DNA from: a virus | Lineage: Duplodnaviria; Caudoviricetes | Strand: one strand, 5' to 3' | Length of the DNA: 62,709 nt | Virus record (IMG/VR): IMGVR_UViG_3300010412_000012 | Coordinates: 1 to 62,709 of that record | Shown: one piece after another, positions 8,454 to 25,677 of the stretch | How positions within the stretch are numbered: position 1 is the stretch's first letter | Layout of the letters: the number at the start of each line of letters is the position of its first letter | Translations under genes and position numbers: made by a program | Notes under the pieces: generated by a model | What the model saw: only the letters and a program-made list of their open reading frames with translations | The model's database searches: none | What the model was told of the DNA's origin: nothing

Positions 8454-8680
8454 TGGTGGTAGAGATACGCTGGCTTGATGCCAGTATCGAGACCTCGGAT
8501 TTCAAAAGGAAGGAAGCGAAGAACACCAAGCCCGTAGACCGCTGGACTACAGGCTATCTGGTGGAGGAGAACGAGGATTGTGTGGTGCTGGCGACGGACT
8601 ATTACGTCAAGAAGAAGGACGGATTCGCCGCCAAGATGGTCATTCCTTGGGGGATGATTACCGAGTACTGGTACTACTAG
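8441..8680 (+). CDS. Small phage hypothetical protein
   Basis: Overlaps the upstream stop; VEIRWLDA...TTGYLV...IPWGMI pattern resembles a common small phage protein. Confidence 0.65.
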   Translation: MATVMVVEIRWLDASIETSDFKRKEAKNTKPVDRWTTGYLVEENEDCVVLATDYYVKKKDGFAAKMVIPWGMITEYWYY

Positions 8681-9156
8681 AAGGCGTACCCGATCACCAG
8701 CATGTCCTGCCCCAAGTTCGGGGTACCTGACCCTGCGTTGCTGAAGTGCCGCACCCTGATCGACCAGTGCTCACCGCCGAAGCCGAGGGACAGAGACCAC
8801 GTTAGCTTCTTGCCGAGGGCGCGGTTCGTATTCTGGAAGTAGGCTGGCCCGATACCAAGTTCCCAACGCTTGTACTCAAACACACGTTGGGCGTGGAAGA
8901 AAATGTTTTCGTCCAGCTCAGCCGGGTAACGGCAGTGACACACTTGTTTGGAAATGTAGCCACCGCCGACAGAGAACTTCCCGATACGATCCGACAGGAT
9001 CATGGCCCCACCTTCCGAGTACTCACCTGACAGGAGCGCTGGCCCGGCCTCAAGCTCGAGCGCGTTAGCCTCCTTGTAGGCGAAGAAGATGAGGATGAGC
9101 AGGAAGACGAGGATAATCCATATACCCTCGACCCCCAGCTTTGAATCCTTACCCAT
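8677..9156 (-). CDS. pagL: PagL-like lipid A 3-O-deacylase (outer-membrane beta-barrel)
   Basis: Signal peptide ending ANA; amphipathic beta strands; C-terminal RHFSNAG...PNLGQD (PagL H-x-S-N...N-x-G-x-E/D) and terminal Phe. Confidence 0.75.
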   Translation of the reverse strand: MGKDSKLGVEGIWIILVFLLILIFFAYKEANALELEAGPALLSGEYSEGGAMILSDRIGKFSVGGGYISKQVCHCRYPAELDENIFFHAQRVFEYKRWELGIGPAYFQNTNRALGKKLTWSLSLGFGGEHWSIRVRHFSNAGSGTPNLGQDMLVIGYAF

Positions 9157-9500
9157 CAGGGCTTTTCGTGTGCCGAGAAGGTGAACGTGAAGTTCGGGCT
9201 TGCCGTACCACCAAGCGTCCAGCTGACCCGAAGCAGATGACCGAACGGCGTCGTGTTACCGACGACAGTGCGGCGAACAGTGGCAACGCCAGTCTGCTGC
9301 GGGAACGTGTCGATGGTAGCGTAGCTGTCTGAAGCCTCGTCGTATTCCTCAACGATCACATCGAGCGTGGGCGTCGTGCCACCGGCAGCGGTGATGTCCA
9401 GTACGAACACGGCATTCTGTGCGCCGAAACCGAACAGCCCCGAGGCACCTGTGGCAGTGATGTTGCCGCTGTGGACAACGTGTTGGGCTGGCCTACTCAT
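9156..9500 (-). CDS. Hypothetical beta-rich protein
   Basis: ATG at 9500 overlaps the end of the upstream 45-aa ORF; Thr/Gly/Val-rich beta-sandwich-like composition. Confidence 0.6.
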   Translation of the reverse strand: MSRPAQHVVHSGNITATGASGLFGFGAQNAVFVLDITAAGGTTPTLDVIVEEYDEASDSYATIDTFPQQTGVATVRRTVVGNTTPFGHLLRVSWTLGGTASPNFTFTFSAHEKP

Positions 9501-9630
9501 CTTCGTCAACCTCTACGTCTTCGACGACTTCTTCCTCGAAGACTTCTTCCTCGACTACGGGTTCGGCAACCGGCTCAGCACGTGCAGCCTTCTTGCGTTC
9601 CCACTCTTTCCTCAGTGTGCGACTTGGCAT
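9493..9630 (-). CDS. 45-aa basic/acidic bipolar peptide (not in the ORF track)
   Basis: MPSRTLRKEWERKKAARAEPVAEPVVEEEVFEEEVVEDVEVDEDE; AGGAGA Shine-Dalgarno; fills the gap exactly. Confidence 0.65.
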   Translation of the reverse strand: MPSRTLRKEWERKKAARAEPVAEPVVEEEVFEEEVVEDVEVDEDE

Positions 9631-9640
9631 TTCCTGTCTC

Positions 9641-9898
9641 CTAAATTGGACGGTTCTTCGCGTCACGCTTGTAGCTGCGGTTCGTCTTGCGGCTCACAAC
9701 ACGTGTGTTAGACGTCGAACGGCTCCCTCCCTTCGACAGTGGAACTTTGTGGTCAAGCTCTTTGCCATCACCCTTCTTGACCCGGCCATCCTTCATGGCC
9801 TCACGGCGTGCCTTGTTACGGGCAGCACGATCCTTCTTCGCCTCGGGGGAAGCGTGGTACTTCTCGTAGTACGCCTTACTTCTTTCTCTTGCGCCCAT
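9641..9898 (-). CDS. Small HNH endonuclease-like protein
   Basis: ELDHKVPLSKGGS..SNTRVVSRKTN motif. Confidence 0.75.
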   Translation of the reverse strand: MGARERSKAYYEKYHASPEAKKDRAARNKARREAMKDGRVKKGDGKELDHKVPLSKGGSRSTSNTRVVSRKTNRSYKRDAKNRPI

Positions 9899-10136
9899 TT
9901 AACCGTCGCTTCTCTCGCTGTGCATACCAAATGATCTTGTCCAGATCATATTCCCTAGTGGTGTTGGCTTTGTGACCGTAACGATAGCACGCCTTGAAGA
10001 TATTTCCCATAGCGAAATTCATGTCCCGGTACTCGATCAAGTCCTGCATTTCCTTGGCACCGGGCGGCAGCTGGTAGTAGTCAGATGACCAACCTGTAAC
10101 GTCAGATCGCGTTTTCAATTTTGTATTTTTTGACAT
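9876..10136 (-). CDS. DUF3310-family protein
   Basis: DYY...DLIE..DMNFAMGNIFKACYRYGHK...DLDKIIWY pattern. Confidence 0.7.
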   Translation of the reverse strand: MSKNTKLKTRSDVTGWSSDYYQLPPGAKEMQDLIEYRDMNFAMGNIFKACYRYGHKANTTREYDLDKIIWYAQREKRRLNGRKRKK

Positions 10137-10160
10137 TTTAATAGTGGGCCTTTAATACAC

Positions 10161-12962
10161 CTATAACGTAACTTCAATGATGTTGCTTCGGGGCAGGTGG
10201 TAGGCCGTATCCTTGATTCCGAGGTATGCCTTGCTTTCCTTCGCATCCAGCGTTTCCTGCATTTGCGGCCAGAGCGCCGAAACATTCATATTTTGCGATT
10301 TTTGCAGCCACGCCGCGAAGTCCTTTCCACGGAAACGGTAGGTGTCGCCTGCTCGGACGATCATCATGCGATTCTTCGGTGGAGCCTTCACGGTGGGGTT
10401 TTTGGCGTGCTGGCCGGGCTGCGGGAACGCATCGAGGAGCAAAAGCCCGTCTTGGAACTGCTGTATGTAAGCAATGACGACTTCTCGAGCGCTGGTGTTG
10501 GTCATAGCGAGTCCAGTGCGAACACGCAGTACAGAAACCCTGTCACGAAGGTATTGCGACATCGTCTTTATGTCAAAATTGACGATTCCGGCTTTTTTCG
10601 CCAGTGACGCAGCCGCTAGAAGCGAAGCGATAGTTGCACACCAGAACCTCTCTCCTTCGGTGAATCCCCACTCAGTATAGATACGTTCATAGAACTTCCG
10701 AACATAATCCGCGATAGTAGGTTGCCGGGTGGCGATATATGCTGCAAACAGCTGCCCAGCGTGTCCGTGGTTCGAGTCCAGACGTCCAAACATGGCGTTC
10801 CGGGTAGCCCGAGTCGGGTCATCAAAAGGATCGACTTCGAGTTCAAGTGTTCTCGCCGTTGCCGCGTTACTACGCCCTCCGCGCTGTGCCATGTGATCGA
10901 AGATAGATTCATTACTCGCCCCTACGACGATGGTCTTCCAGTCCAGTACCTCACGCATTTCGGCATGGGCGTTCATTCGTGCCTTGCTCTTGCCCTGCGT
11001 GATCTGAAACGCGATCCGGTGGAAATTATCGAGGGCTTCGTCGCCCCTGATTTCGTCCCAATAGATCGGCAGGTTCTTCAGGAACGCGGTTTTGGCGATA
11101 ATCGAGTTTTCGGTGTCGCTGATCGAGTTCATACCCACCTTGGGATGCCCCCAGACAGCCTGTGCGGTCTGTAGGGCCGAGGACTTACCCAAACCCGACT
11201 CCCGGCTCACAATGGTTATCATGGCCCCAGACATCCCCGTATAGCCGAACAGGGGCGCAGCAAAAGCGCTGGCAAGGACACTGGTGAAGGCCGGATTGTT
11301 CTGGTCGGCCAAGAAGTCAGCCGCCTCCTTCCAGACCTCAAAGTCACCGTCAGGGATGAAGTGCCGCGCAACCTCCTTATGCTCGGCAGCGATACGCAGG
11401 TCGTTGTGGACAGTCCCGTCCTTCATGTAGCTCGTATCACCTGCTGTGAACCCGGTGGTGTGGACTTTGCCCTCACTCCGTTCCTCGATCCAGCCGTAGC
11501 GCGATACGCTCTTACCGACCTTTCGTTGTTTCTGTACCTGTCTCAACCACGTGTTCATAAGGTTTATCCAATGGTTCACTTCCTTCTGTTCGATAGCGCA
11601 GCCTTTCTCTGCCAGTTCCTTCTTCAGACCATACGTATCGCCAAGCAGTTTGTTCGGGAGGTCAATACTGACCGGGGTGCTGTCGGAGTACCGGGACACA
11701 ACTGTTATCATGTAATTACCAGTGACCATGTCGCGTGACGCACCCGACAGTTCCCAACTGCGGTTCAGAACCTTGACCCAGATGTACTCCTTGGTCTCCT
11801 TGTCAAAGTCCTTCTTCTCCATGCCCATGTTACCTTCAATCGGACGCCAGCCATACAGCGGGAACTCTTTTCCTTCAGCTGTTACGACTTCTTCCTCGCC
11901 GAGCATCAGCGGTGTCTTGATCTTCCCCCGGTGTGGGCAGGCACCGCATATTTCGGGCCGATAGGCAGCGAAGGTGTCGCAGAGTGTTGGCCCGGCTTCG
12001 TTCTCCAACCTTTGCTGCCACTTCTCGTTGGTATCCTCGGGTGTGTAATCCCGATGTCCTTTTGATAGGTCGTGGTAGTAGAGTTCACCATCCGCACAGT
12101 GTTTTGCAAGTTGGAGCGAAGCAGTCCACTCTGGCTCAGAGCAATCCTCTCCGTTAACTGTGAGGATATGTGCGAGCACGCCGCATTTCTTAGCGATGTT
12201 GGGGATGAAACTTTGAACAGTTCGTCCCACACCGTGTAGTAGATCGTCTGACTGTCCCAGACCCCGGAGGTAGTCTGGTACAGGTCCGCCAAGGTGTAAA
12301 CCGGACTCTCCCGAGACGCCGCCTCCGAGAAGGGTGACTTCAAGTTCTGCGGGATTAAATAGTTCACCTGTGGTAAGGGCGTCAGGGACAACTGGTTTAG
12401 GGTTTCGTTTATCCTTAACATTTCGTGTACCGATGGGCCGAAGTACTCGAGCCGCGTCAGTCGTGCATTTGACATCGGTAGGTAGGCCGTGACTGACCGC
12501 CAGAGCTTTGAGAGCTTCAGCAAGCGGTTGCCATCGAGAACGCGCAATAGGAACTTCAAAAGGCCAGTAGACATGACACCCATTCCCAGAGTGAACGAGG
12601 ATCGACGGTATGGGCATCCTCGTTGCGTTACAAAACTCACGGATAGCGGCGACTACTTCCGTGGGGTTCGATAGCCCATCTTTATAGTCAATATCGAACC
12701 ACAGCGCTTTGACCTGATGTACGTTGGCCTGTGTACGGAGTTGCTTTTTACCAGTTTTTTCGTTGGTGTACCAACCCTGTTGGTAACTGCTCATCGCGTA
12801 GAACACGTTGTGTCCCGACTGAGCAACTCTGATTGTCGCCTTTTGCAATTCTTCGTGGCTATTACATACCACGTGTTGCATACCCTTGTCTGTCAAGAAC
12901 GCGAGTATGCGTTTTCCCTCGTCCTTCGGGACGATGGCCTCGTAGAATTCTGATAGTTTCAT
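10161..12962 (-). CDS. Primase-helicase (RepB/AEP-like primase, Cys-rich linker, DUF927/SF3-like ATPase)
   Basis: WFDIDYK, HSGNGCHVYW, DAARVLRPIGT primase motifs; C..C..CPH cluster; Walker A SGLGKS and Walker B YWDE. Confidence 0.85.
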   Translation of the reverse strand: MKLSEFYEAIVPKDEGKRILAFLTDKGMQHVVCNSHEELQKATIRVAQSGHNVFYAMSSYQQGWYTNEKTGKKQLRTQANVHQVKALWFDIDYKDGLSNPTEVVAAIREFCNATRMPIPSILVHSGNGCHVYWPFEVPIARSRWQPLAEALKALAVSHGLPTDVKCTTDAARVLRPIGTRNVKDKRNPKPVVPDALTTGELFNPAELEVTLLGGGVSGESGLHLGGPVPDYLRGLGQSDDLLHGVGRTVQSFIPNIAKKCGVLAHILTVNGEDCSEPEWTASLQLAKHCADGELYYHDLSKGHRDYTPEDTNEKWQQRLENEAGPTLCDTFAAYRPEICGACPHRGKIKTPLMLGEEEVVTAEGKEFPLYGWRPIEGNMGMEKKDFDKETKEYIWVKVLNRSWELSGASRDMVTGNYMITVVSRYSDSTPVSIDLPNKLLGDTYGLKKELAEKGCAIEQKEVNHWINLMNTWLRQVQKQRKVGKSVSRYGWIEERSEGKVHTTGFTAGDTSYMKDGTVHNDLRIAAEHKEVARHFIPDGDFEVWKEAADFLADQNNPAFTSVLASAFAAPLFGYTGMSGAMITIVSRESGLGKSSALQTAQAVWGHPKVGMNSISDTENSIIAKTAFLKNLPIYWDEIRGDEALDNFHRIAFQITQGKSKARMNAHAEMREVLDWKTIVVGASNESIFDHMAQRGGRSNAATARTLELEVDPFDDPTRATRNAMFGRLDSNHGHAGQLFAAYIATRQPTIADYVRKFYERIYTEWGFTEGERFWCATIASLLAAASLAKKAGIVNFDIKTMSQYLRDRVSVLRVRTGLAMTNTSAREVVIAYIQQFQDGLLLLDAFPQPGQHAKNPTVKAPPKNRMMIVRAGDTYRFRGKDFAAWLQKSQNMNVSALWPQMQETLDAKESKAYLGIKDTAYHLPRSNIIEVTL

Positions 12963-12973
12963 AGCCGCCGCCT

Positions 12974-13038
12974 AAAAAGGGCCGGGGGGCGTCTGCTTCC
13001 TGCGGTACTCCACAGTGCTCAGCATACCCCTCCGGCCA
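12974..13038 (-). terminator. Long branched hairpin plus U-run (terminator/attenuator) upstream of the primase-helicase
   Basis: GGCCGGAGGGG...CCCCCCGGCC stem with inner CTGTGG-AGTA-CCGCAG stem, followed by CTTTTT. Confidence 0.6.
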
Positions 13039-13044
13039 AGCTAC

Positions 13045-14091
13045 TCAACCACCAAGAATGGAGTCGAGCATTGCGTCAAAGTCCTCACCGCCGCTAGAGG
13101 GGGATGCGGCGGCAGGCTGCGAGGGGGTCTCGTTACTCGCAGGGACTTCAGGTGGCGCAACTGGTGCGGGAGCAGGGGCAATCTCATCGACCGTCTCGGC
13201 CTTGGCTGCTGCCTGCTCTTGGGCGACTGCTGTTTCCTGTACCGGCGTAGCTTTTGCGGGAGCCGGGGCAGCTACTTCTGGCGCAGCGTGCGTGGGTGCT
13301 GCACCTGCCTCGCTTGCTGTCCCGGTTGTTCCCGCATCGGCATACTCCGCCGACTCATTGAGGACTCGTTTGGCTTCATCAGACTCACGCAGTTCTGCTG
13401 ACGCCTTGAACTCATCTTCATTGAGGAAACGAAGACCTTTGAAGGTAAACTTCGGATACGCTGCGTCAGCGTCGAAGCCTATCTTCGTTGCCAGCACGTA
13501 GTACGGAATACCTTTCGGCTTCAGTACACGTTCGGCGTAATCTTTGAGGGGGTTCAGTGACGCAGGCGGTACACGCAGCAACATCACATCGACGTCAGCC
13601 AGAGCACGTGTGCCAGCTGCGACTTCTTCCAGCTGATACAAAAAGGCTACGGCCACACGCCGGACGTCCTGACACGCCTTCGTCGGCTTGCCTTGATCCG
13701 TCTGTTTGGAACCCCAGACGTTCATCGGACAGTTGGCGCACATGTCATTGACTTTGACAGGCACCGTCGAGTCGGGGCGCACACCGTCGCTCGACCAGCA
13801 ATCAGGCTTGCTGTTATCACCTTCCGAGTACGAACCTTTGTAGTACGTCTTCGAGGGCAGGTTGTTCGAGCGAAGCATGACGACTTCGAGGCTCGGCATT
13901 GGGTCGCCATCGGCGTTCAGGTACGGTTGGGTTTCCCCACCGGCCCTCACCTTCCAGACCTTACCTTTGTAACTGATGACCGGAAAACCGGACGACACGC
14001 CACCGGACAGTTCCTCGAAAACTTCCTGACCGACGACCCCTTGCAAGTGTGCAGGCAGTTGTGCTGCCGTAGTTGTAAGATCATTACTCAC
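13045..14091 (-). CDS. Putative ssDNA-binding/annealing protein
   Basis: Lies in the replication module; CWS.DG..P, C..CP.N.WGS and KAC motifs; Ala/Pro linker and acidic C-terminal tail. Confidence 0.6.
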   Translation of the reverse strand: MSNDLTTTAAQLPAHLQGVVGQEVFEELSGGVSSGFPVISYKGKVWKVRAGGETQPYLNADGDPMPSLEVVMLRSNNLPSKTYYKGSYSEGDNSKPDCWSSDGVRPDSTVPVKVNDMCANCPMNVWGSKQTDQGKPTKACQDVRRVAVAFLYQLEEVAAGTRALADVDVMLLRVPPASLNPLKDYAERVLKPKGIPYYVLATKIGFDADAAYPKFTFKGLRFLNEDEFKASAELRESDEAKRVLNESAEYADAGTTGTASEAGAAPTHAAPEVAAPAPAKATPVQETAVAQEQAAAKAETVDEIAPAPAPVAPPEVPASNETPSQPAAASPSSGGEDFDAMLDSILGG

Positions 14092-14476
14092 TGTCTTTTC
14101 CTCTGCGGATACCGATTTGGGTTGATGCCGTGAACTTGACGCCCGGTACCTCTACGCCCTCGTCCAGCAATTCTTTGATGATCTTCTTGTTCGCACGAAT
14201 ATCCATCGCGTCGAGTTTGCGATTCTTGATAGCGAACTTGAAGAACTCGTCTCGATCTTTCACCGTTGCGCTGGTGCGTTCAATCTTGTAGATCGTGCCA
14301 GCGTCGGTGTTGGCAGAGTTACTACCAGAGTCGTTCAAGTGCGTGGCGAACTCCGACTCGAGTTTCGCCATAGCTGCCTTGACGCGATCCATACTGGTAT
14401 TGAACTCTTTTTTGGCTTCGTCCAGATAGTCACGAAGTTTGACGTACTGCATAATTTTTTGGTTTAGGTCTGTCAT
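14084..14476 (-). CDS. Phage hypothetical protein in the replication module
   Basis: N-terminal coiled coil; C-terminal EVPGV; overlaps both neighbours. Confidence 0.7.
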   Translation of the reverse strand: MTDLNQKIMQYVKLRDYLDEAKKEFNTSMDRVKAAMAKLESEFATHLNDSGSNSANTDAGTIYKIERTSATVKDRDEFFKFAIKNRKLDAMDIRANKKIIKELLDEGVEVPGVKFTASTQIGIRRGKDSE

Positions 14477-14886
14477 AGTTTCAACTCCACTTGTCGGCCA
14501 CTCGCGTCAACGATGGTTGACTTGCGGCCCTTTAGCGTTCGTGCTGCCTCTGTCTTCAGCACTTCCTTCGGCTTCTCACCAAGTACCTTTTCAGCGCTGG
14601 CTGTAAGGGTGGCGAGGCCGATTCGAGCGCGTATAAGTAGAGACAGTCGTGAGTCATGGAGTGTGGTCATGTAACGGATGAACTGATCCAGTTCTTCACG
14701 TTCGCATGTCATTACAACCTCGTCGTTCTTCTTGATGCCGCGAGTCATTATCTCGGTGGCTTCAAGCATCTTTGCGAACGCATAGACCCCATCTTTATCT
14801 TTGTCACGGACGGAAGTACGTATGGCTAGAGCAGCCACTACACGCTTCAGCTTCCACCGATAAAACCATTGCTTGATTCGGTTCAT
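14473..14886 (-). CDS. Hypothetical protein
   Basis: ATGA overlap with the downstream gene; in operon. Confidence 0.65.
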   Translation of the reverse strand: MNRIKQWFYRWKLKRVVAALAIRTSVRDKDKDGVYAFAKMLEATEIMTRGIKKNDEVVMTCEREELDQFIRYMTTLHDSRLSLLIRARIGLATLTASAEKVLGEKPKEVLKTEAARTLKGRKSTIVDASGRQVELKL

Positions 14887-14896
14887 TGTAGTCGCC

Positions 14897-16447
14897 TTAG
14901 TTGTCGTTAAACATGTCGAGGAGTGCTCCCTGAAGTCGGGACTTCTGCCTCAAACGGGAATACAGCTTACGCTCGATTGCGGTGCCAGTCAAATGAATAA
15001 TCAGGGCTTTTTGGGTCTGACCGGGGCGCGTGATTCGAGCGTTCGCTTGCTCATAAATTTCGAGTGAGGTTGTCGGGGTGAACCACACAATCGTGTTGGC
15101 AGAGGTCAGTGTCAGACCGTGCGCCATGCACTGCGGATGTGCGATCAACAACTGTTTCTCAGGGCTGTCCTGAAACGTGTTGAAGATGTCGTTGCGGTAC
15201 TTCATCGGAGTACCTCCGTGAACCAACGCACAGTTCGTCTTCTTCACTACACGTGCATACAACTCCTCAGTGGAGTGCTTGAAGTTGGTGAAGCAGATGA
15301 CCTTGCCAGCTGCCTGCTCGTAGATGTCGAGCAACTCTTGAACTCGGTTCTTGTTGTCGAGTCTAACCACGCCTTTATCCTGCGTGTAGACCCAACCACA
15401 ACTGATTTGCAACAGCTTTGAGAAAAGCACGCCTTCGTTCGCAGCGGTGACATTGCCCTCTTGAAAAGCCAGCTTCAATTTCTTAACCATGTTGTCATAG
15501 GTCTGAGCGACCTGCTTCGACGGTTTCACTTCGACGTCCTTGTATGTCGTCTCGGGCAGCTCCACGCAGTCGTCACGCTTGAACCTGACAGCTGGCTGCA
15601 ACATGGCATACACATGGTCGTTAGCGTCGTGCTTCGGCACCCATCGGAATTCACTTATCTGTATCATGGTTTTCCGAATGAACTCTTTTTTGTAGGGCGT
15701 TGCACGTGCGGGGGTTAGCAGCTTCGCCAGCCCCCATGCGTCCGGTGGTTCGTTCGGCATGGGCGACCCGGTCATTCCCCAGACGTAGGGAGTGTTGCGT
15801 ATCACGCTACGCGCAGCACGCCAGAGTTCGGTGCTTGGATTTCTGAATGTCGCTACTTCGTCAATGATGACGACATCGTACTTCTGGTCGATCAACTGCT
15901 GCCGCATGATCTTCAGACCATCGTGATTGATGATGTGGATTTGCTTGTCTTGGTTGGTCTCCAACAGGTGTAGCCGTTTCTTCCTTTGGGGGTGATGCAG
16001 CACCACGGTGCTCAGGTGCATGAAGTAACGGAATATCTCTTTGTCCCACACCTGTGTCAGAGTACTGAGGGGTGCGACAACAAGAACTTTCTTAATTTGG
16101 CCTTCGTTGAACATGTGGTCACAGGCGTACAGAGCCGCACGTGTTTTGCCTGTTCCCATTTCAGATAGGACGTAGGCACGAGGCTGCATGGTGAGCAGCC
16201 CTGCCGTGATCCTCTGCGTTTCAAAAGGTGGGGGGTCGGTGGGCCACTCATACTGCGACAGAACTGGCGCGGGTATTTTGTAGCCCATGTTGCGAGCGAG
16301 GCGTGTAGTCTCAGTCGTATGTGGATACGCCATCACGTGCTGACCACGGAAGTCTACCAGTCTTCCGGGTACGAGCGCAGTCAAACCCTCATCAGGCGGA
16401 ATGAGGAATTCCTTGCTTGCTTTGACGATTACAGGCTGAGTAGCCAC
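14897..16447 (-). CDS. SNF2/SF2-type DNA helicase
   Basis: EMGTGKT, IIDEV, MTGSP, HGLTLT and QANARITRPGQ motifs. Confidence 0.9.
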   Translation of the reverse strand: MATQPVIVKASKEFLIPPDEGLTALVPGRLVDFRGQHVMAYPHTTETTRLARNMGYKIPAPVLSQYEWPTDPPPFETQRITAGLLTMQPRAYVLSEMGTGKTRAALYACDHMFNEGQIKKVLVVAPLSTLTQVWDKEIFRYFMHLSTVVLHHPQRKKRLHLLETNQDKQIHIINHDGLKIMRQQLIDQKYDVVIIDEVATFRNPSTELWRAARSVIRNTPYVWGMTGSPMPNEPPDAWGLAKLLTPARATPYKKEFIRKTMIQISEFRWVPKHDANDHVYAMLQPAVRFKRDDCVELPETTYKDVEVKPSKQVAQTYDNMVKKLKLAFQEGNVTAANEGVLFSKLLQISCGWVYTQDKGVVRLDNKNRVQELLDIYEQAAGKVICFTNFKHSTEELYARVVKKTNCALVHGGTPMKYRNDIFNTFQDSPEKQLLIAHPQCMAHGLTLTSANTIVWFTPTTSLEIYEQANARITRPGQTQKALIIHLTGTAIERKLYSRLRQKSRLQGALLDMFNDN

Positions 16448-16755
16448 TCACGCAACTCCGACTCCCCCGAAAACGAATCATCTTCCGGGTAGTAAACTTC
16501 GCCGATGACGATGGTCTTACCACCGGCCTCTCTAATCTGTTCCAGCGTCAACTCCTGTCGGGGTGTCGGGTGCTTGCCCGGACGCTTGGTTTCAATGCCG
16601 AGGAACCTCCCGCCATGACAGGCATGGAAGTCCACCCCAGACGAGCCATGCCCACGTTGGACAGGCATGTGCCACCACGCACCGTGATTTCGTAACATGC
16701 GTTTCACACGGTCTTTCACAGTCTTCTCGAGGATGTCTTTCGGGTCTCGTCTCAT
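16429..16755 (-). CDS. VRR-NUC endonuclease
   Basis: EK.V...GVDF...GIETKRPGK.PT.RQ motif. Confidence 0.85.
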   Translation of the reverse strand: MRRDPKDILEKTVKDRVKRMLRNHGAWWHMPVQRGHGSSGVDFHACHGGRFLGIETKRPGKHPTPRQELTLEQIREAGGKTIVIGEVYYPEDDSFSGESELREWLLSL

Positions 16756-16758
16756 CGC

Positions 16759-17427
16759 TTAGTCTCTCTCGTACCATTCAGGACAGCTGCTCACAGGGCA
16801 GTATCCGCATAAAGGGGTGGCATTGGATGGAAAATCGGTGGTCTGCTCGGCTTTGTCTATCTCCGCCGCCCGAGGCATAAAGTCCAGCCACACCTGTTTC
16901 AGTCGATCCTTGTGGATGACCTCGCGGGTGAACTCGTTATCCTTGAGCCACGCATAGATCAGGATGAAGTTCTCTATCTCTGGCATGAAGCGTGACAGGA
17001 TCGCAGCGGCCAACTTCAGCTGGTCGAAGCCCGGCTTCTGCTTGCCTGTCTTCCAGTCAATCAGGAATGCCATTGTCGAGTTATCGGAAAGCAGTAACAG
17101 GTCGAGGACAGCGCGAACCCATGCGTCCTTGGCGAAGAAGTCTACTGGCTGCAACTTGTCGTTGAGGCACAGCTTCATTTCGCCATACTTCTCGTCGTGC
17201 GGCAGCGCCAGCGCCCGGTCAGCACTAGCCTGCATGTGACGCAGCTGTACCGGAAGTGGTACACCTTCCATGCAGTACTTGAACAGCGCGTCGTGGACGA
17301 ACTTACCGTCAGCCTGCCACTGGTTGTCAGGCTCCTTTACGTCCTTCTTCACCTTCAGGTGATAGAACTTCTTGCGGCACTTCTCGAACATATCGAGGGC
17401 GCTGTATGACCATGCTCGTTTCTTCAT
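16759..17427 (-). CDS. PD-(D/E)XK exonuclease (Cas4/RecB-like)
   Basis: WSYSAL..FEKC, H..L, LD...IDWKTGK, QL, C-terminal C..CP...C. Confidence 0.85.
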   Translation of the reverse strand: MKKRAWSYSALDMFEKCRKKFYHLKVKKDVKEPDNQWQADGKFVHDALFKYCMEGVPLPVQLRHMQASADRALALPHDEKYGEMKLCLNDKLQPVDFFAKDAWVRAVLDLLLLSDNSTMAFLIDWKTGKQKPGFDQLKLAAAILSRFMPEIENFILIYAWLKDNEFTREVIHKDRLKQVWLDFMPRAAEIDKAEQTTDFPSNATPLCGYCPVSSCPEWYERD

Positions 17428-17657
17428 ATCCTGTGTCTTCCGTCGATGATGACGTCGCCTTCAGCCTCAATCCATACATGTGCTCCACACGATAGTGGTT
17501 TGTCAGGTTGATACACGACTACTGAATCCCCTTCGATATAAACGTGGTTGGCGGTGTGCGTCTTCTTGTAAGTCTTCACGGACATAACCGGGCGACTGCC
17601 ACCGTCCTTTCTGTTGGCTTTGATGTTGTGCTGGTTTACGTGGATTCGTTTCTTCAT
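17424..17657 (-). CDS. Phage hypothetical protein
   Basis: IHVNQH...PDKPLSCGA.VWIE pattern; ATGA overlaps at both ends. Confidence 0.75.
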   Translation of the reverse strand: MKKRIHVNQHNIKANRKDGGSRPVMSVKTYKKTHTANHVYIEGDSVVVYQPDKPLSCGAHVWIEAEGDVIIDGRHRI

Positions 17658-17815
17658 CGTGGTTCACTTGTAAGGTGGTAAAGCCCCCGGCAATGGGGGC
17701 ATTTATAGAACCGTTTTACCCCTATGTCTCGTTGTTCACGCAGAGCCTCCCTCGCTCTGGTCGCGCTCTTGTATCCTACTTTCCTGCATGTCTTCTTTTG
17801 CCTTCTTGAACCCAT
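17654..17815 (-). CDS. Small Zn-binding protein
   Basis: C.KV.Y...YKCPHC..YHLTS; AAGGAG SD before ATG 17815. Confidence 0.65.
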   Translation of the reverse strand: MGSRRQKKTCRKVGYKSATRAREALREQRDIGVKRFYKCPHCRGLYHLTSEPR

Positions 17816-17894
17816 CACATTTCTCCTTGTGTTCGTTAATAGCGATTGCCTCGTAGTACTTCTTGCAATACGGGCAAGTCCAGATTTCCCACAC
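17736..17894 (-). CDS. 52-aa C2HC zinc-finger protein (not in the ORF track)
   Basis: GTG start with GGAG SD just after the upstream stop; WTCPYCKKYYEAIAINEHKEKC. Confidence 0.5.
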   Translation of the reverse strand: MWEIWTCPYCKKYYEAIAINEHKEKCDGFKKAKEDMQESRIQERDQSEGGSA

Positions 17895-17895
17895 T

Positions 17896-18177
17896 TCACT
17901 CTCCACCAAGGGTCATCATCCTGAACCATTCGTAGGCCACAGCTTCATACCACCTGAAGTACATCGTACTGTTCTGCTCATCGCCTTGGCGCTGGAACAG
18001 CATTTCCTCGGTGTCGGGGTCATTGGTGCTGGTCGTCCAGCCCATGTCCTGAAGCCACTTGGGTATGCCTTGCGGCACGTACTGGTAGGTGGCGCTGTAC
18101 TTGTACTCAACGGTGTTCGCCACGGAATGTGTAGTGATCTGGGAGCCGAGACCGCCGGGCCATTGGTTGTATGCCAT
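17896..18177 (-). CDS. Hypothetical protein
   Basis: TAATG coupling to the polymerase stop. Confidence 0.6.
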   Translation of the reverse strand: MAYNQWPGGLGSQITTHSVANTVEYKYSATYQYVPQGIPKWLQDMGWTTSTNDPDTEEMLFQRQGDEQNSTMYFRWYEAVAYEWFRMMTLGGE

Positions 18178-20030
18178 TATTTTGCATCCCCGTATGTAGG
18201 GCCATGACCGGCCTCTGCGTCAATAGGTAAATTACGCGACCACTTCGGTTGCGTCTTCATAATGCCAAGCAAGCCTTGCTCCAACTGAGGAAGCATGGCC
18301 GTAGGGACAACATACACCAATTCGTCGTGCGCTTGAAGGGCTGGGCGCAGACCGAACTGCTGATAGGCTTCACGCATGTGTCCCATAATGATGATGCGTG
18401 CGAGGGCTTGGATCAGGTTCTCCACGAACTTGCCGCCCCACATGGTTCGGCCCTGTCCTGCGAAGTTGTATGACCAGCCCTGATACTTACTGTCTTCGAC
18501 CCACCGGAGGTTCGGGTAGTCGAGCGTCATCCCATTGGGAAGAAGAATCTGGTTGCCCTTGACGGTGGCCGGGCCGATCTGCCGGGACGCACCTTGAGCC
18601 ATCATGCCGATGGTCTCGTCACACAGCCGCCAGAGCGCCGGGATTTCGGGGTACGACATTCTATACACATCTACGTAACGCTGAACCTGTGCGTCCGTTT
18701 CTTTGACGCCCTGAGCACGCAGCGTGGCCTTCAGCTTCTTCCAGCCCATGCCGTAACCGAGGCCGAGGATGCAGGTCTTGCCGATGAAGCGTTCGTGCTG
18801 GTCGGCCTTGGTAATGGTGCGCCCCCAGACCTTCGATGCAAATGCACAGTATGGATCACCACCTGTACGGAACACGTGTAGCAAATCCTGACAGTTGGAG
18901 AGCCATGCGTTCAGTCGGGCTTCGATCTGGGACAGGTCACAGGCAAGGACGGAGTGGCCGGGCGGGGCGCACAGCGCGTAGCGTAGGTGGTACCTGTCTG
19001 TGGCGTTCTGGGGGATGCGTGGGAGGTTCTGACAGTTGATCCTCTCCATCCCCCCGTAACGGCCTGTGTGGGCCGCATAGTACCGTAGAGGGATTCTGAG
19101 GCGCTTGTAGCGCTCGCCTATGGCAAGGAACCTCTCGGCTCGGGTCTCGGCAATCGTGGATTTCACGCCCAATCGTGCAGCCATGATGGGCGCTATGAGG
19201 GGGTCATCGCCGTAGGTGTCTTCGAGTTCCTTCCAGCCTGTGTCGTTCTTGGCGAACGCCCAAGTCGCCTTGCCGGTGGTGGGGCTGATCTTGTACGGAA
19301 CTTCTACCCCCAGACTTTCCAACAGCTGTGCGAATTGTGGGTTAGACGAAAGCTGGGACTTTTTGATATGTGAGGGTAGGGCATCCATGAGCGCCTGTTT
19401 TCGCTCACGAGTCGAGTCTAACACGTGTTGCAGAATGTTGGTATCGAGGACGAACTGTGGCTCGAGGTACATACGCAGCGTGAGGTCGATAATGTCCAGT
19501 TCCTCACGCGGGAACTCGGGGAGCAGATTCCTGAATAGCCAATAGGTACCTTCCACATCCGTTTTGCAATACTCGCCATACTCCACCATTTCTTGCGTCG
19601 AGAGCGATGAACGCCTCCGGCCAGTCATCAAGTGGACAGTTCCCATCTTCGCCCACGGCGAGCCTCTGTGCTTCAGACATGAAGCGAGCGAGATACTCCT
19701 GTGGTACGGTTTTAGGAGGGCTTGAGCCATGCCAAGTGTGTCCAGCAAGCGTGCTGGCATGTGGGTCGGAAAGTAGCATGAGAAGATCAGACCATCGAAT
19801 GCAGTATTGTGACTCAACATAGCCGAGTCGCGTAGTCCAAGGCGACTGAAAAGGGCCGAGTACTCGTCCATTGTGTCGTAGCTGTACCATTGGGCGGGTT
19901 CCTCGTTGACCTTCACGCCGACCATGATGATTTCAAAGCGCGGGTCGTTTACGTAGTCCTGAGTAGACATCTTCGACAGGCTGTAATCCTTGTCGTAATA
20001 CGTCTCCCAATCAAGGGTGATGAGGTTCAT
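18177..20030 (-). CDS. Family A DNA polymerase with 3'-5' exonuclease
   Basis: LDWET and HNTAFD (exonuclease); HTGR; DLSQIEAR (motif A); RFIGKTCILGLGYG (motif B); HDE (motif C). Start at ATG 20030 by ATGA overlap. Confidence 0.95.
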   Translation of the reverse strand: MNLITLDWETYYDKDYSLSKMSTQDYVNDPRFEIIMVGVKVNEEPAQWYSYDTMDEYSALFSRLGLRDSAMLSHNTAFDGLIFSCYFPTHMPARLLDTLGMAQALLKPYHRSISLASCLKHRGSPWAKMGTVHLMTGRRRSSLSTQEMVEYGEYCKTDVEGTYWLFRNLLPEFPREELDIIDLTLRMYLEPQFVLDTNILQHVLDSTRERKQALMDALPSHIKKSQLSSNPQFAQLLESLGVEVPYKISPTTGKATWAFAKNDTGWKELEDTYGDDPLIAPIMAARLGVKSTIAETRAERFLAIGERYKRLRIPLRYYAAHTGRYGGMERINCQNLPRIPQNATDRYHLRYALCAPPGHSVLACDLSQIEARLNAWLSNCQDLLHVFRTGGDPYCAFASKVWGRTITKADQHERFIGKTCILGLGYGMGWKKLKATLRAQGVKETDAQVQRYVDVYRMSYPEIPALWRLCDETIGMMAQGASRQIGPATVKGNQILLPNGMTLDYPNLRWVEDSKYQGWSYNFAGQGRTMWGGKFVENLIQALARIIIMGHMREAYQQFGLRPALQAHDELVYVVPTAMLPQLEQGLLGIMKTQPKWSRNLPIDAEAGHGPTYGDAK

Positions 20031-20101
20031 CCTAGCAACCATATTAGAAGCAGGAAGAACACGAGCACAATTAGTGTTGTCCATCTGCGTAGGAAGTTCA
20101 T
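20027..20101 (-). CDS. 24-aa single-TM micropeptide
   Basis: MNFLRRWTTLIVLVFFLLLIWLLG; ATGA overlaps at both ends. Confidence 0.5.
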   Translation of the reverse strand: MNFLRRWTTLIVLVFFLLLIWLLG

Positions 20102-20739
20102 TTGAGGTATTTGTCTATCAGCTGTTGGTAGAGTGAGGGTTTCGGGGGTGGCGCAGCGGGTGTACCTTGGATGCTGGAAGTACTTGCTGATGATAACGCC
20201 TGCCCCTGAGCCGCCGCTGCCGCCTGACCAGTGAACGTGATGGTCGGGCTTGTCACACCTGTGTGAGTCGGGTACGTGACAGTCCCGGTGTTGGTAATCC
20301 ACTGTGGAGTGTTCATCAGCTGGTTGTATTGACTGTGCTGGTACTTCTTCATCAGTTCTTCCAGCTGTTCACGGTGTATCTCGGCAGCTGACTTGGGTGC
20401 TTCTGGTCGTGGTGTTACCAAGTCGAAGTCACAGTCAGGGTTCTGGCATTGGAGAGACACCCACTCGCCGGGCTTGTTCTCCAACCCGTTGTCGGTTTCT
20501 TCGATCCACAACTGGTGTACCAAGAGCAAACCTTTCTTCTCGTCCTTGGTGAGACACTGGCGGCAGAAGATGGTCTGGTGCTGACGCTCGTAACGTGCCA
20601 GCGAGTTTAGATCACGTGCTCTGAAAGGGGTGAGGTAATGCGAGCGAAAGGCATCAGGATTGAATACGCCTTCCTGCATTTCGGGGTGGACTTTGGCAAC
20701 AAGTTCGATGACCTCTTGCCGAACTTCATCAAGTTCCAT
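20098..20739 (-). CDS. Hypothetical protein with two Cys pairs and a Gln/Thr/Ala-rich tail
   Basis: CRQC and CQNPDC; first gene after the promoter at 20772-20800. Confidence 0.65.
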   Translation of the reverse strand: MELDEVRQEVIELVAKVHPEMQEGVFNPDAFRSHYLTPFRARDLNSLARYERQHQTIFCRQCLTKDEKKGLLLVHQLWIEETDNGLENKPGEWVSLQCQNPDCDFDLVTPRPEAPKSAAEIHREQLEELMKKYQHSQYNQLMNTPQWITNTGTVTYPTHTGVTSPTITFTGQAAAAAQGQALSSASTSSIQGTPAAPPPKPSLYQQLIDKYLK

Positions 20740-20771
20740 TTCATCGCCTTAATTAGTTTGGTAGATGACCG

Positions 20772-20800
20772 AAACTATCAGATGACAAGTTGCTCGTCAA
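20772..20800 (-). promoter_or_regulatory. Sigma70-like promoter for the replication genes
   Basis: TTGACG-17 nt-TAGTTT immediately after the terminator. Confidence 0.6.
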
Positions 20801-20803
20801 GAC

Positions 20804-20834
20804 AAAAAAAGGGGCCAGCCCGAAGGCCAGCCCC
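20804..20834 (-). terminator. Rho-independent terminator
   Basis: GGGGCTGGCC-TTCG-GGCTGGCCCC followed by T7. Confidence 0.85.
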
Positions 20835-20855
20835 ATGTCACACAGTGTGTGAGTT

Positions 20856-21575
20856 TTAATGATCGGGATACAGTCTGTCGTTCTCCAAGTTGTCCATGAC
20901 TGCAATAGTTAAAAGGACTTGGTTGATTTCTTCCATGTCAGGCAGATGCTTAAACTGCTCTAAGGTTTCCTCACTCCAACCAGTAGGCATTGCAGAGCGT
21001 AACTTCTGTGCCGCCATTCGGTCGGTGTATTTCTTTTCAACCAAGGACGCGAACTCGGGCCACGCACGATACAACTGACCGGGAGTGTTCACTGAGTTGA
21101 TGGTCAGGTATTCCCCATCAGCCTTCTTGAGTCTCCCGCTACCCCACACTAACGCATGTGCGTAGCTGTCGAACCGAGACTGCCAAGCGCAAAGCTGACG
21201 GTCTCTGACAACCCACGCGAGTAACTTTGTGCGTAGTTCAGGGTCGGTGATCTGCGTGTCCTCAATCTCCACTTCGGGGTACGGGAAAGAATCGTACCGT
21301 GATCCGAAGTGAAGTTTGATTCTCGGGTTCCTCGGCAAGTACTCACGCTTCTCTGATAGCGACGGACACTTGATGGACATGCTGTTGCAATGGTTGAGCG
21401 CCTTCCTTGGCGCAATCAACTCCATTGCCTCACGTTCCTCACGTGACCATGCAAACCAGTAGTAGTCCTTGGGGTCAAGAGTGTTCGCGTGCATCGTGTG
21501 ACGATACCTTGTGAACATCTGTCGCCCTTTGTTCAGCATGAACGACCTGCCGGATTGTGACAGCCGGTTACTCAT
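20856..21575 (-). CDS. Hypothetical protein, possibly Nmad5-like
   Basis: SVNTPGQLYRAWPEF resembles the T..qL...WPE motif. Confidence 0.5.
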   Translation of the reverse strand: MSNRLSQSGRSFMLNKGRQMFTRYRHTMHANTLDPKDYYWFAWSREEREAMELIAPRKALNHCNSMSIKCPSLSEKREYLPRNPRIKLHFGSRYDSFPYPEVEIEDTQITDPELRTKLLAWVVRDRQLCAWQSRFDSYAHALVWGSGRLKKADGEYLTINSVNTPGQLYRAWPEFASLVEKKYTDRMAAQKLRSAMPTGWSEETLEQFKHLPDMEEINQVLLTIAVMDNLENDRLYPDH

Positions 21576-22758
21576 CGTCCAGTTCTACGAAGATGGTCTC
21601 ACCAATAGGTGACTCCATCCCCTCACTGGTCGAACACCAGATGGTGTGATAGCCGGGGTCTTCGGGGAAGTCGCCATACATGTCTGTGAAGTAAACCACA
21701 CAGTCAGGACGAATCCCCTGTTCCTCAATCCACTCGAAAGGCGGCACAAAACTCGTCCCTCCTCCCCCGCCTAACGGTGGCGGGTTGTCCTTGAGTGAAT
21801 CACCGGCATACAACTCGTGAACCGAATTGATACGAGCATCGCAGCCTATCAGGGTTACGGCTTTCGGGGTGCAGTCGAGCAAGATGTTGTCGCACTCTCC
21901 GAGACCCTGTGCCATTTCCTTCTGCGACATAGAGCCTGAAGTGTCCACGACGAACACGATGTGACCAGCAGCGAAGCCGGTGTAGCTAGGCATGACGACG
22001 CCTTGTGATAACAACCGACGACGATGGGGTCGAGTCCACGTAGTAGCCTCTCGCCCTGCCACCTTCTGCATAGACTTACGCAACTTCTCAGTCCATGCGA
22101 CCTTCGGTTCAAGTACCTCATCCACGAACCGTTGCAGGTCAGCAGGTAACTTACCCTGCGCCTTGGCAGCATCAGCAGCACTTGCAATCACACGTTTCAT
22201 TTCGGCCTCGGTCACTTGAGCACTAGCGGGGATATGCTCGTCAAGCGTACCACCTGTGCCATGCCCCGGCCCATCCCCATCATCGGGATCGTCACGTAGC
22301 TTGCGGTAAACATCGTCTGCCATATCCTGCGAAGTGAACCGGGACGGATCATGCAGGACATTGGAAGGCATCTTGCCGATGTTACAGTTGTGCAGCATAT
22401 CGTTGATGATGTAGTCACCGGCTCGGTTCCATCTACCGTGGTCAAACGGTTCACCGTCGAAGCCCGTGTCCTGATACTGCTTGGCACGAGGCATGTGCAT
22501 CCAGATCGCATGACCAATCTCGTGACACATGACGAAGACACGTTCGGGTAGCGTCAGCTTCTCAAAGAAGTCAACGTCGAACCAGATGTTCTTCCCATCG
22601 GTTGCTGCGGTTTCGTTTCCCTTCATGTGCGGGGGAAACACATTGTCGAACTTGCCGACCTTGATACGCATGTGGTCAAGCATGATCGACGCGAAGAACG
22701 GTACATGCAAAAGCATCGCCGTTTTGACTTCCGTCAGTTTCGTGTTTTCTTCACTCAC
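21568..22758 (-). CDS. DUF2201-type metallopeptidase plus vWA domain protein
   Basis: TAATDG, HEIGH, N.AGD..IN; MIDAS motif DTSGS, GGGGTSF, YFTD. Confidence 0.85.
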   Translation of the reverse strand: MSEENTKLTEVKTAMLLHVPFFASIMLDHMRIKVGKFDNVFPPHMKGNETAATDGKNIWFDVDFFEKLTLPERVFVMCHEIGHAIWMHMPRAKQYQDTGFDGEPFDHGRWNRAGDYIINDMLHNCNIGKMPSNVLHDPSRFTSQDMADDVYRKLRDDPDDGDGPGHGTGGTLDEHIPASAQVTEAEMKRVIASAADAAKAQGKLPADLQRFVDEVLEPKVAWTEKLRKSMQKVAGREATTWTRPHRRRLLSQGVVMPSYTGFAAGHIVFVVDTSGSMSQKEMAQGLGECDNILLDCTPKAVTLIGCDARINSVHELYAGDSLKDNPPPLGGGGGTSFVPPFEWIEEQGIRPDCVVYFTDMYGDFPEDPGYHTIWCSTSEGMESPIGETIFVELDDE

Positions 22759-23353
22759 GATGATATTTCTCCTTCATTGAGTCGTATGGAACACGGACTA
22801 CGGCATTGTCCGGTAGCAGTTTATCTGCTAGACGGGCGCGAGCCTTAGCCCACGGTTCCATGTGTTCGTCAATCACCTGTCGTAATTCTGTCAGGTGTGA
22901 CTTCATCGGGTTCCAACGGGAATCGACTGCGATACGCACTACGTTCGCACCATAGGTACTCAGGTCACGTGCGTTGAACTTCTCAGTCATTACCAGCTGG
23001 GCTTCCATGTGCTTCATCAGTTCATCCCGAGCGTTCTCGTCAGGTGTCCAGATTGAACCACGTGTCTTGCCCAGATAGCCCAGCTGAAAATCCACGGTAC
23101 GCAGGATGAGTTGCAGACAGGTGTACCATCGTGAGGACTTGGAGAGCGTGTAGCCTCGACGAATTGCTGTGTCGATAGCCTTACGTTCCTTGTCACTCAG
23201 GTCGCCCATCGTCAACTCGGAATACCCACGTAGCCTGATTGGAACTTCACTGTCACTGTACTTGCCAGAGGGCTGCCTCTTGTACGTGTTCACCCATCTG
23301 TTCCATGCAGGTGTCAGCGCTTCTATTCCATGACTAGGTTTCATCAGTCGCAA
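22751..23353 (-). CDS. Hypothetical protein
   Basis: Overlaps both neighbours in the operon. Confidence 0.6.
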   Translation of the reverse strand: MRLMKPSHGIEALTPAWNRWVNTYKRQPSGKYSDSEVPIRLRGYSELTMGDLSDKERKAIDTAIRRGYTLSKSSRWYTCLQLILRTVDFQLGYLGKTRGSIWTPDENARDELMKHMEAQLVMTEKFNARDLSTYGANVVRIAVDSRWNPMKSHLTELRQVIDEHMEPWAKARARLADKLLPDNAVVRVPYDSMKEKYHRE

Positions 23354-24593: not shown

Positions 24594-24594
24594 C

Positions 24595-25674
24595 TTACAT
24601 ACCTCGCTTCGGGTCGATCAGGTTCGCCGCTACCAAAAGGTCTTGATTCTGGCGCAACCAACCGGCGAACTTCTTTGATTGCACAAGTGATGGGCCGGTC
24701 TTACGCATGGCCGCTTTGATTCCCGACACCTGAAACTCACGTGGCATACGCTTCAGGTAATCGAACGCAGGCTCAGCAGTATCTCCGTCCACACGATGAG
24801 CAATCATCTGCGTGGCAGCATACTGTGCGTCAGGCCGATCTTTGTCAGGCAGTTTGCACTTCATCGGATTGTTCACAATGTCCATGAAGTCAGGCAGCTG
24901 CTCCACTACCCGCATGAACGATACGAACTGTGCCGTAGTACCTTCACCGATTGCACCCGCGCAGAGTTCGATGAACTGGGACTCATCGAAGTAGTCTCCA
25001 ATCAGGTGTGACACCTTGCAGAACGAGCGTGGCGTGCAGAACGGCCCCGGCTTCTCAGGCACCTTGTCCTGAAAGATCAGTCCCGGCTGGCTCTTGGCGA
25101 ACGCAATCGCAGCCCAATGGATGTTGCCCTCTTGCTCCGCCCATTCGACCCACGAGTCCAAGTGCGGCTCGACCTTGAGTTCGATACGCCTGTTCTCAAT
25201 GAACGCCAGTGAGCGTTGGACACCAGACCGATCCGATTCCCGGTTCGATGCAGCTACCACCATGTACTCAATCGGTAGCTTCGAGTCACCGACCTGTCCT
25301 GCGTTGAGCAGTTCGGCAGATGGTTTCTGTACATCGTGACCAGACTGACGGTACTCATCCAAGAAGATGAATCCCGCCGCAGCATCACCCTCCCTTGGCA
25401 TCCACGGTGCCTTGGTGAACCACATTTCACGTGCTTCAAGGTCAGGACACCCATAGCCTCTTACGTCAGGTGCTTCAACGGTAGACAGGAAGAACTTCTT
25501 AACTGTGAAGTCGTCCAGACTCCATTGCTTCTGGATCATGCGTCCTGCTTGCTCGACGCACATGGACTTGCCAAGGCCCGGCCCGGATACCAACTCGACA
25601 GAGAACCTTTCACCTGTCTCAACTTGACGCTTCCACAGTTGGCTCAGCGTCGGGATTACTTGATTCAAAAACAT
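24595..25674 (-). CDS. MoxR-like AAA+ ATPase
   Basis: GPGLGKS, IFLDEY, AASNR..D, NR, TPRS motifs. Confidence 0.85.
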   Translation of the reverse strand: MFLNQVIPTLSQLWKRQVETGERFSVELVSGPGLGKSMCVEQAGRMIQKQWSLDDFTVKKFFLSTVEAPDVRGYGCPDLEAREMWFTKAPWMPREGDAAAGFIFLDEYRQSGHDVQKPSAELLNAGQVGDSKLPIEYMVVAASNRESDRSGVQRSLAFIENRRIELKVEPHLDSWVEWAEQEGNIHWAAIAFAKSQPGLIFQDKVPEKPGPFCTPRSFCKVSHLIGDYFDESQFIELCAGAIGEGTTAQFVSFMRVVEQLPDFMDIVNNPMKCKLPDKDRPDAQYAATQMIAHRVDGDTAEPAFDYLKRMPREFQVSGIKAAMRKTGPSLVQSKKFAGWLRQNQDLLVAANLIDPKRGM

Positions 25675-25677
25675 GAT

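Follow-up and report, generated by a model that had tools for sequence, protein, structure and literature searches.

The virus record IMGVR_UViG_3300010412_000012 (Duplodnaviria; Caudoviricetes), whose full 62,709 bp were analysed and are referred to here as the window, carries a gene of the PagL family at the end of its replication genes. PagL is a lipid A 3-O-deacylase of Pseudomonas aeruginosa and has also been studied in Salmonella and Bordetella. We consider it likely that the phage gene encodes a working outer-membrane lipid A 3-O-deacylase of this family, which is made together with the replication genes and alters the surface of the infected cell. In other words, the phage probably edits the outer membrane of its host during infection. 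An initial annotation of the sequence had named a signal peptide, the motifs HFSNAG and PNLGQD and a terminal Phe, and the gene and all of these features were present as described, with HFSNAG at residues 137-142 and PNLGQD at residues 146-151 of a product of 159 amino acids. The positions of the gene and of its parts are listed in Table 1.

Membership of the PagL family was supported by several comparisons of the protein sequence. The product matched the Pfam family PagL (PF09411) with 35.5 bits against a gathering cut-off of 23 (E 1.2e-8), residues 98-158 being aligned to profile positions 63-134 of 136, and a six-frame search of the record recovered the same match at 34.5 bits. In a word-indexed search 115 of the 156 candidates proved to be relatives at E <= 0.001, and PF09411 was found in 107 of these 115. 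An exhaustive search of 1.84 billion representatives gave 174 relatives at E <= 0.001, including 69 at E <= 1e-10. The nearest clusters in the ESM Atlas were named acyloxyacyl hydrolase or lipid A 3-O-deacylase. PHROGs and NCBIfam contained no family for the 159-residue protein.

From the word-indexed and exhaustive lists 74 relatives with a near-full-length match, down to about 27% identity, were selected and aligned. Four residues were invariant in this alignment, namely Gly103, His137, Ser139 and Gly149. The putative catalytic residues His137 and Ser139 were thus found in 74/74 sequences, while Asn140 was conserved in 64/74 and Asn147 in 72/74; Asp151 was shared by 67 of the 74 sequences, six others having Asn and one Glu at this position. 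When the profile of the 74 relatives was compared with the PDB, P. aeruginosa PagL (2ERV) was matched at E 1.2e-6 and the sole other match had an E value of 0.31. A phmmer search of the PDB with the single protein gave only matches at chance level (E about 1), so the family profile was needed to detect 2ERV. In the profile alignment, with the residues of 2ERV counted along the chain, His137 corresponded to H126, Ser139 to S128, Asn140 to N129, Asn147 to N136 and Asp151 to E140. The His-x-Ser...acid triad and the downstream Asn proposed in the initial annotation therefore all had their counterparts in 2ERV. The acidic residue is not identical in the two proteins, but Asp for Glu is a conservative change and Asp151 sits 12 residues past the Ser, as in 2ERV. 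In addition, Asn140, Gly142, Pro146, Asn147 and Gly149 matched the active-site stretch of 2ERV. Salmonella PagL cannot do without its His and Ser according to PMC4958258, where pagL is also stated to be missing from E. coli K-12, and a review describes the PagL triad together with an oxyanion-hole Asn beside the Ser (PMC4402001).

The predicted structure pointed to the same family. An AlphaFold2 model built on the 74 sequences (pLDDT 93.9) consisted of a helix at residues 11-28 followed by eight strands (33-42, 45-58, 61-73, 79-95, 98-107, 118-127, 131-139 and 150-158), and would therefore form the eight-stranded antiparallel outer-membrane barrel characteristic of PagL. The comparison with PagL that had been suggested as a check of the initial annotation thus came out in its favour at the level of the model. 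The top match in a Foldseek search was 2ERV (E 3.6e-4). VIA-align superimposed residues 31-159 of the model on residues 1-148 of 2erv_A with Z 17.5 and a root mean square deviation (rmsd) of 1.3 A over 117 residues at 26% identity, a close fit which is not fully independent of 2ERV because AlphaFold was trained on the PDB including this entry. The next chain was OmpA (Z 14.8, rmsd 2.8 A), and OmpA, OmpX and Ail together reached Z 9.5-14.8 with an rmsd of at least 2.8 A and at most 13% identity. If the topology is the usual one for such barrels, strands 7 and 8 would carry the active-site residues at their extracellular ends, which is also where PagL has them.

Two other identities were considered and rejected. 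LpxR has 12 strands whereas the model has eight, and the LpxR family (PF09982) was absent among the three Pfam families listed for the protein at E <= 1. For a plain barrel of the OmpA/OmpX/OmpW type there was no Pfam match to the protein and the fold scores were clearly below those for PagL.

The loops of the model contain motifs that are specific to the clade. FQNTNRALG is located in loop 3, and a C-x-C pair (residues 73-75; 8932-8940, minus strand) in the predicted extracellular loop 2. Its two columns contained Cys in 20 and 25 of the 74 relatives, and in 16 and 15 of 28 closer relatives. It might form a disulfide or bind a metal, as a particular trait of the phage clade.

The ends of the protein carry the signals expected of PagL, as far as they can be judged from the sequence. 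Among the 81 open reading frames (ORFs) that were picked by strand block for annotation of the window, only six strongly hydrophobic stretches of 19 residues were found, and residues 4-22 of the PagL-family protein (mean hydropathy 1.83) are one of them. The leader is followed by A-N-A at residues 30-32, ahead of strand 1. Small residues are kept at -3 and -1, with Ala at -1 in 60 of the 74 relatives and Ser in another 7, and cleavage is accordingly predicted after Ala32. The protein ends with GYAF, and the column of the terminal Phe159 was Phe in 70/74 relatives. An export signal and a C-terminal aromatic signal thus both appear to be present.

The gene lies in a phage genome that CheckV estimated to be 98% complete. 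According to PHROGs the plus strand encodes a large terminase, a T7-type head-tail adaptor/portal, a major head protein, an internal virion protein and tail fibres, while DNA polymerase, an SNF2 helicase, nucleases and a primase/helicase are encoded on the minus strand. The replication block on the minus strand, which also comprises an endonuclease and a PD-(D/E)XK exonuclease, ends with the PagL-family gene as its last ORF. Moreover, the gene is tightly joined to both of its neighbours. Its start codon overlaps the stop codon of the upstream ORF by one base in the sequence TGATG, and its TAG shares the palindrome CTAG (8677-8680) with the TAG of a convergent ORF of 79 codons. The closure of the replication operon and the translational coupling, both of which had been noted in the initial annotation, are therefore borne out. 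The upstream ORF of 117 codons had no homologue in the five other viral loci with a PagL-family gene (described below), and so is not a conserved partner. The convergent ORF closes a block on the plus strand that also comprises a DarB-like protein of 2285 amino acids and a 'DNA transfer protein' (phrog_1745); a pattern scan of viral contigs gave no further relatives of the 79-residue protein.

The composition of the gene is close to that of the phage. Its G+C content was 0.572 and its G+C content at third codon positions (GC3) 0.748, compared with 0.53-0.60 and 0.61-0.73 for seven other phage genes; GC3 was thus slightly over the highest of the compared values. Scans of the region 8000-13200 contributed little. 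They detected no sigma-70-like promoter, where chance alone would give 2.5 such sites, so that little is learned from this negative; the seven terminator-like sites (5.2 expected) were uninformative, and inverted repeats showed nothing telling.

As already remarked in the initial annotation, no integrase is visible. The record, complete to 98%, yielded no recombinase of the tyrosine or the serine type, and this uncultured phage is probably virulent.

Table 1. Coordinates of the PagL-family gene, its parts and its surroundings in the window
Feature	Position	Strand	Basis
PagL-family gene (start ATG 9156-9154, 159 codons, stop TAG 8679-8677)	8677..9156	-	ORF list and translation
Predicted Sec signal peptide, residues 1-32 (MGKDSK..., hydrophobic core, A-N-A)	9061..9156	-	Hydropathy, model helix, column conservation
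Predicted mature eight-stranded beta-barrel, residues 33-159, with aromatic C-terminal signal ...GYAF	8680..9060	-	Model and VIA-align
Putative active-site stretch His137-x-Ser139-Asn140...Asn147...Asp151, top of strands 7 and 8	8704..8748	-	Residue alignment with 2ERV
Codon of His137	8746..8748	-	Read directly from sequence
Codon of Ser139	8740..8742	-	Read directly from sequence
Codon of Asp151	8704..8706	-	Read directly from sequence
TGATG, one-base overlap of upstream stop TGA and PagL ATG	9154..9158	-	Read from sequence
Upstream ORF, 117 aa, no hydrophobic leader	9156..9509	-	No PHROGs/Pfam match
Convergent ORF, 79 aa	8441..8680	+	No family match
Early/middle (replication) block ended by the PagL-family gene	9156..31113	-	PHROGs names
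Primase/helicase (DUF927)	10161..12962	-	PHROGs/Pfam
SNF2 helicase	14897..16447	-	PHROGs
DNA polymerase	18177..20084	-	PHROGs

It might be asked whether the gene is confined to this phage. Scans of viral collections, run with the single protein and with a 28-sequence alignment, detected relatives of 38-72% identity in five contigs, and phage hallmark genes were nearby in four of the five. Its surroundings differ between them. At locus L002 (63% identity) it is located directly before the large terminase gene, and at L006 (on the same contig as L003; 72%) it comes after a tail-fibre-like gene, where the structural block ends. L007 (63%) offered no named neighbour. At L008 (on the same contig as L004; 42%) the gene precedes an ORF of 776 codons, a tail protein gene and a terminase gene, and at L009 (38%) one small ORF separates it from the terminase gene. 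When 20 proteins encoded at positions 5-20739 of the window were compared with these five loci by tblastn, no shared flanking gene was found except a homologue of the 79-residue protein at L006 (9101-9409; 46% identity over 70 residues), about 700 bp downstream of the PagL-family gene. There the homologue shares the strand of the PagL-family gene, whereas the two genes are convergent in the window. Gaps of 188 or 272 nucleotides precede the gene at L002 and L003. Because of these unrelated flanks and upstream gaps, the gene behaves as a mobile accessory gene across phages. The initial annotation had contrasted it with a self-contained moron; this holds locally, where the gene is built into the operon, but not across phages, where it turns up in five contigs with unrelated surroundings. 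No tyrosine integrase was found in the five other records, which are 20-85% complete.

Among cultured phages the closest were four Rhizobium phages, each about 61 kb in size, with identities of 48% for the portal and 37% for the DNA polymerase. Eighteen of the 81 ORFs matched the first 50 kb of one of them, RHph_TM3_14A, and the replication block was syntenic, but PagL was absent from these phages and the block junction of RHph_TM3_14A holds other small genes instead. A 'putative integrase protein' of RHph_TM3_14A (L010, 42239-45322) was homologous to the DUF927 primase/helicase of the window (34% identity over 383 residues), and its name is therefore probably a mis-annotation. Comparison of the PagL-family protein, and of its chromosomal relative P0115, with 50,697 deposited phage genomes by tblastn yielded no match, and neither did megablast of positions 6800-13000 against the same genomes. 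None of the 103 relatives at E <= 1.1e-17 was located on a contig of more than 66,471 bp and seven were on contigs of 20-67 kb, while three of 12 weaker relatives were on contigs of 126 kb to 3.6 Mb; this bias towards small contigs is only suggestive, since most contigs are short. Two motifs of the clade were also sought in 185,579 species, each represented by one genome, and gave a single partial match of 39 residues in a metagenome-assembled genome of the Chloroflexia; being a pattern scan, this search leaves room for diverged cellular relatives. Taken together these observations point to an old, mainly viral PagL clade that moves between phage backbones, rather than to recent capture from a host. 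A bolder proposal would be that several lineages of virulent phages wield this old clade of their own against lipid A, either for vesicle shedding, with superinfection exclusion and protection of the progeny, or for lysis without spanins. Such a phage strategy directed at lipid A itself was not described in the literature searched, but in this general form we find the proposal doubtful.

The region 7000-11000 of the window was found nearly whole (86-98% of sampled words) in 16 DNA sequencing runs, and 20 runs from 9 studies contained all or part of it. The labels of the 16 runs were marine, estuary, mangrove or other sediment, apart from one 'metagenome' and three coded organism names, and the phage seems to be widespread in coastal and marine sediment, although two of these runs may be those from which the record itself was derived. 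Four RNA libraries carried small parts of the region on short contigs only, so that gaps in their coverage have no meaning. One of them, X17, contained a contig of 159 nucleotides that covers 8887-9045 inside the PagL-family gene with one mismatch; other contigs matched neighbouring genes. The X17 contig is only a weak hint of transcription, because contigs from RNA libraries do not prove transcription. The 37-nucleotide match in X18 had loose ends on both sides and probably stems from a relative.

How, then, might a PagL-type enzyme act in the service of a phage? We infer the following course of events. The gene would be expressed as the final cistron of the replication (middle) operon, and the protein would be exported by the host Sec system with cleavage of the leader after Ala32. 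The BAM (beta-barrel assembly) machinery of the host would then read the C-terminal GYAF and insert the eight-stranded barrel in the outer membrane. This would bring His137, Ser139 and Asp151 together with the oxyanion-hole residue Asn140 to where strands 7 and 8 end on the outer-leaflet side, and there the protein, acting as a serine esterase, would hydrolyse the ester-linked 3-O-acyl chain of lipid A. As a consequence the outer leaflet of the infected cell would become under-acylated, and its surface would be changed or shed, which would reduce adsorption both of other phages and of the progeny of the phage itself. The effects of PagL in Salmonella are in line with such shedding: PMC4958258 reports that its expression caused more outer-membrane vesicles, with no envelope stress response, and that deacylated lipid A accumulated in the vesicles.

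With no lysogeny genes present, the phage can profit from the enzyme only in the course of its infection cycle. Superinfection exclusion, outer-membrane destabilisation, vesiculation and altered recognition had been offered as candidate benefits in the initial annotation. We rate a change or shedding of the surface that lowers adsorption as the most likely, and a weakening of the outer membrane in preparation for lysis as second.

In the latter case the same enzyme would, ahead of holin action, thin out the acyl chains of the outer leaflet, and the cell could burst without spanins or with weaker ones. A simple and crude lipobox scan gave candidates for a lipoprotein-type spanin on non-coding strands only, and none on the coding strands, which speaks for this explanation; such an apparent lack means little, however, since the scan is crude and no endolysin was identified in the PHROGs/Pfam annotation of the 81 ORFs. 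Under-acylated lipid A also perturbs the shape of the outer membrane, as described in PMC4958258, but the vesiculation reported there was raised without an envelope stress response. The gene is located among the replication genes, with some 51 kb between it and the holin-like gene (60066-60308), and in L002 and L009 it is found just before the terminase gene, outside any lysis cassette. The position in the middle operon fits a change of the cell surface better than a role in lysis, which we regard as unlikely.

A second alternative is that the protein is an active esterase with the PagL fold whose substrate is different, for instance another acyl position, an outer-leaflet phospholipid or another acylated envelope lipid of a sediment host. 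In its favour, structural alignment with 2ERV gave no more than 26% identity, and the phage clade has conserved loops of its own (FQNTNRALG in loop 3 and the C-x-C pair in loop 2). Against this, the triad and the residues Asn140, Gly142, Pro146, Asn147 and Gly149 match the active-site stretch of 2ERV, and we know of no member of the PagL family with another proven substrate. A different substrate is consequently improbable. It is less probable still that the protein is a non-catalytic barrel that masks or replaces a receptor. Phages do encode plain outer-membrane barrels, and a fold search of BFVD returned many generic phage barrels and nothing else, all with at most 16% identity to the model. 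However, the invariance of His137 and Ser139 down to about 27% identity and the near-invariance of Asp151, Asn140 and Asn147 would not be expected without catalysis, which makes this explanation very improbable. Finally, the record is a metagenome assembly, but an artefact in which host DNA was joined to a phage contig, or a decaying remnant of a gene, is hardly credible, given the overlaps with phage genes on both sides (TGATG and CTAG), the phage-like G+C content and (but for its slight excess) GC3, the 16 DNA runs with at least 86% of the sampled words and the intact relatives in five other viral contigs.

Several points weigh against a working lipid A 3-O-deacylase that alters the infected cell surface, the reading which we nevertheless prefer. 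The Pfam match is limited to residues 98-158, that is to the C-terminal half of the protein, and the model may lean on 2ERV through the training of AlphaFold, whereas the sequence-profile evidence does not. The third residue of the triad is Asp where P. aeruginosa PagL has Glu, and it is replaced by Asn in 6/74 relatives. The N-region of the leader has no net side-chain charge (two Lys, one Asp and one Glu). Cleavage of the 3-O chain presupposes a host whose lipid A has an ester-linked 3-O chain. The contig from X17 could be carried-over DNA. As to the benefit, nothing links the gene to a particular one: it is not adjacent to the holin-like gene, and no conserved partner gene was found among the five other loci or in the viral-contig scan.

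A comparison with known systems helps to define what is new. With P. aeruginosa PagL the phage protein shares the Pfam family, the predicted eight-stranded barrel, the positions of the H-x-S-N...N...acid residues, a leader and a C-terminal Phe. It differs in being phage-borne instead of chromosomal, in its low identity, in the Asp for the triad Glu and in its clade-specific loop motifs. Salmonella PagL is under the control of PhoP-PhoQ, as stated in PMC4402001, whereas the phage gene would follow the timetable of the phage itself. In being a small phage-made outer-membrane beta-barrel the protein would resemble the OmpA/OmpX-like barrels of uncultured phages in BFVD, but these have no known catalytic triad and barrels of that type were the weaker structural match. 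Lom of lambda is a further example of a plain barrel encoded by a phage. Spanins and disruptin break the outer membrane at lysis, either by membrane fusion or as cationic peptides, and are encoded in lysis cassettes. Only if the PagL-family protein were a lysis aid would it be comparable to them as a phage product aimed at the outer membrane; they are not enzymes and are unrelated in sequence and fold.

The closest phage-linked precedent for a lipid A deacylase that we found is LpxR of Escherichia coli (lipid A 3'-O-deacylase), which is carried by lambdoid prophages of pathogenic strains. Like PagL it trims acyl chains of lipid A in the outer membrane, and its setting is also phage-derived. 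According to a recent preprint, more than 98% of the prophage genes for the small RNAs PasD1/PasD2 have LpxR, and likewise the antiterminator Q, no farther than 10 kb away (bioRxiv 10.64898/2026.05.13.724894). LpxR belongs to an unrelated family, however, and acts on a different acyl position; it has a 12-stranded barrel and Ca2+-dependent chemistry, as described in PMC6863877. Moreover, LpxR is carried by prophages and serves the dealings of the bacterium with an animal host, whereas no integrase was found in the phage with the PagL-family gene.

Some further genes of the window deserve mention. The ORF of 2285 codons (5-6862, plus strand) is open at the first bases of the record. Its C-terminal 1000 residues matched a DarB-like antirestriction PHROG (E 8.8e-45), it contains the HExxH stretch HELMH, and its counterpart in RHph_TM3_14A is a protein of 2307 amino acids with 26% identity; the product is probably an ejected internal virion protein. 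A protein of the Sulfotransfer_2 family (E 1.1e-10) is encoded after the tail-fibre genes (56045-56902, plus strand), and a GNAT acetyltransferase (E 1.9e-9; 60308-60808, plus strand) adjoins the holin-like ORF. It is possible that these two are additional surface- or virion-modifying enzymes of the same phage. In the early block, a DUF2201 putative metallopeptidase with a VWA-like domain and an ATPase (phrog_1297) are encoded at 21568-22758 and 24595-25674 (both minus strand), and the pair is kept in the Rhizobium phage at 33% identity.

A literature search, which most subscription journals lay beyond the reach of, returned no report of a phage-encoded PagL. Since the enzyme family itself is well known, what is added here is a lineage and a genomic setting and not a new principle. 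Nevertheless the consequences could be of interest. Phages alter the sugar part of lipopolysaccharide. If our interpretation is correct, a virulent phage that edits lipid A would take over its host in a different way, by touching the membrane anchor itself. This could also help to understand the vesicles that are formed during infection and the means by which phages that have no recognisable spanins break through the outer membrane.

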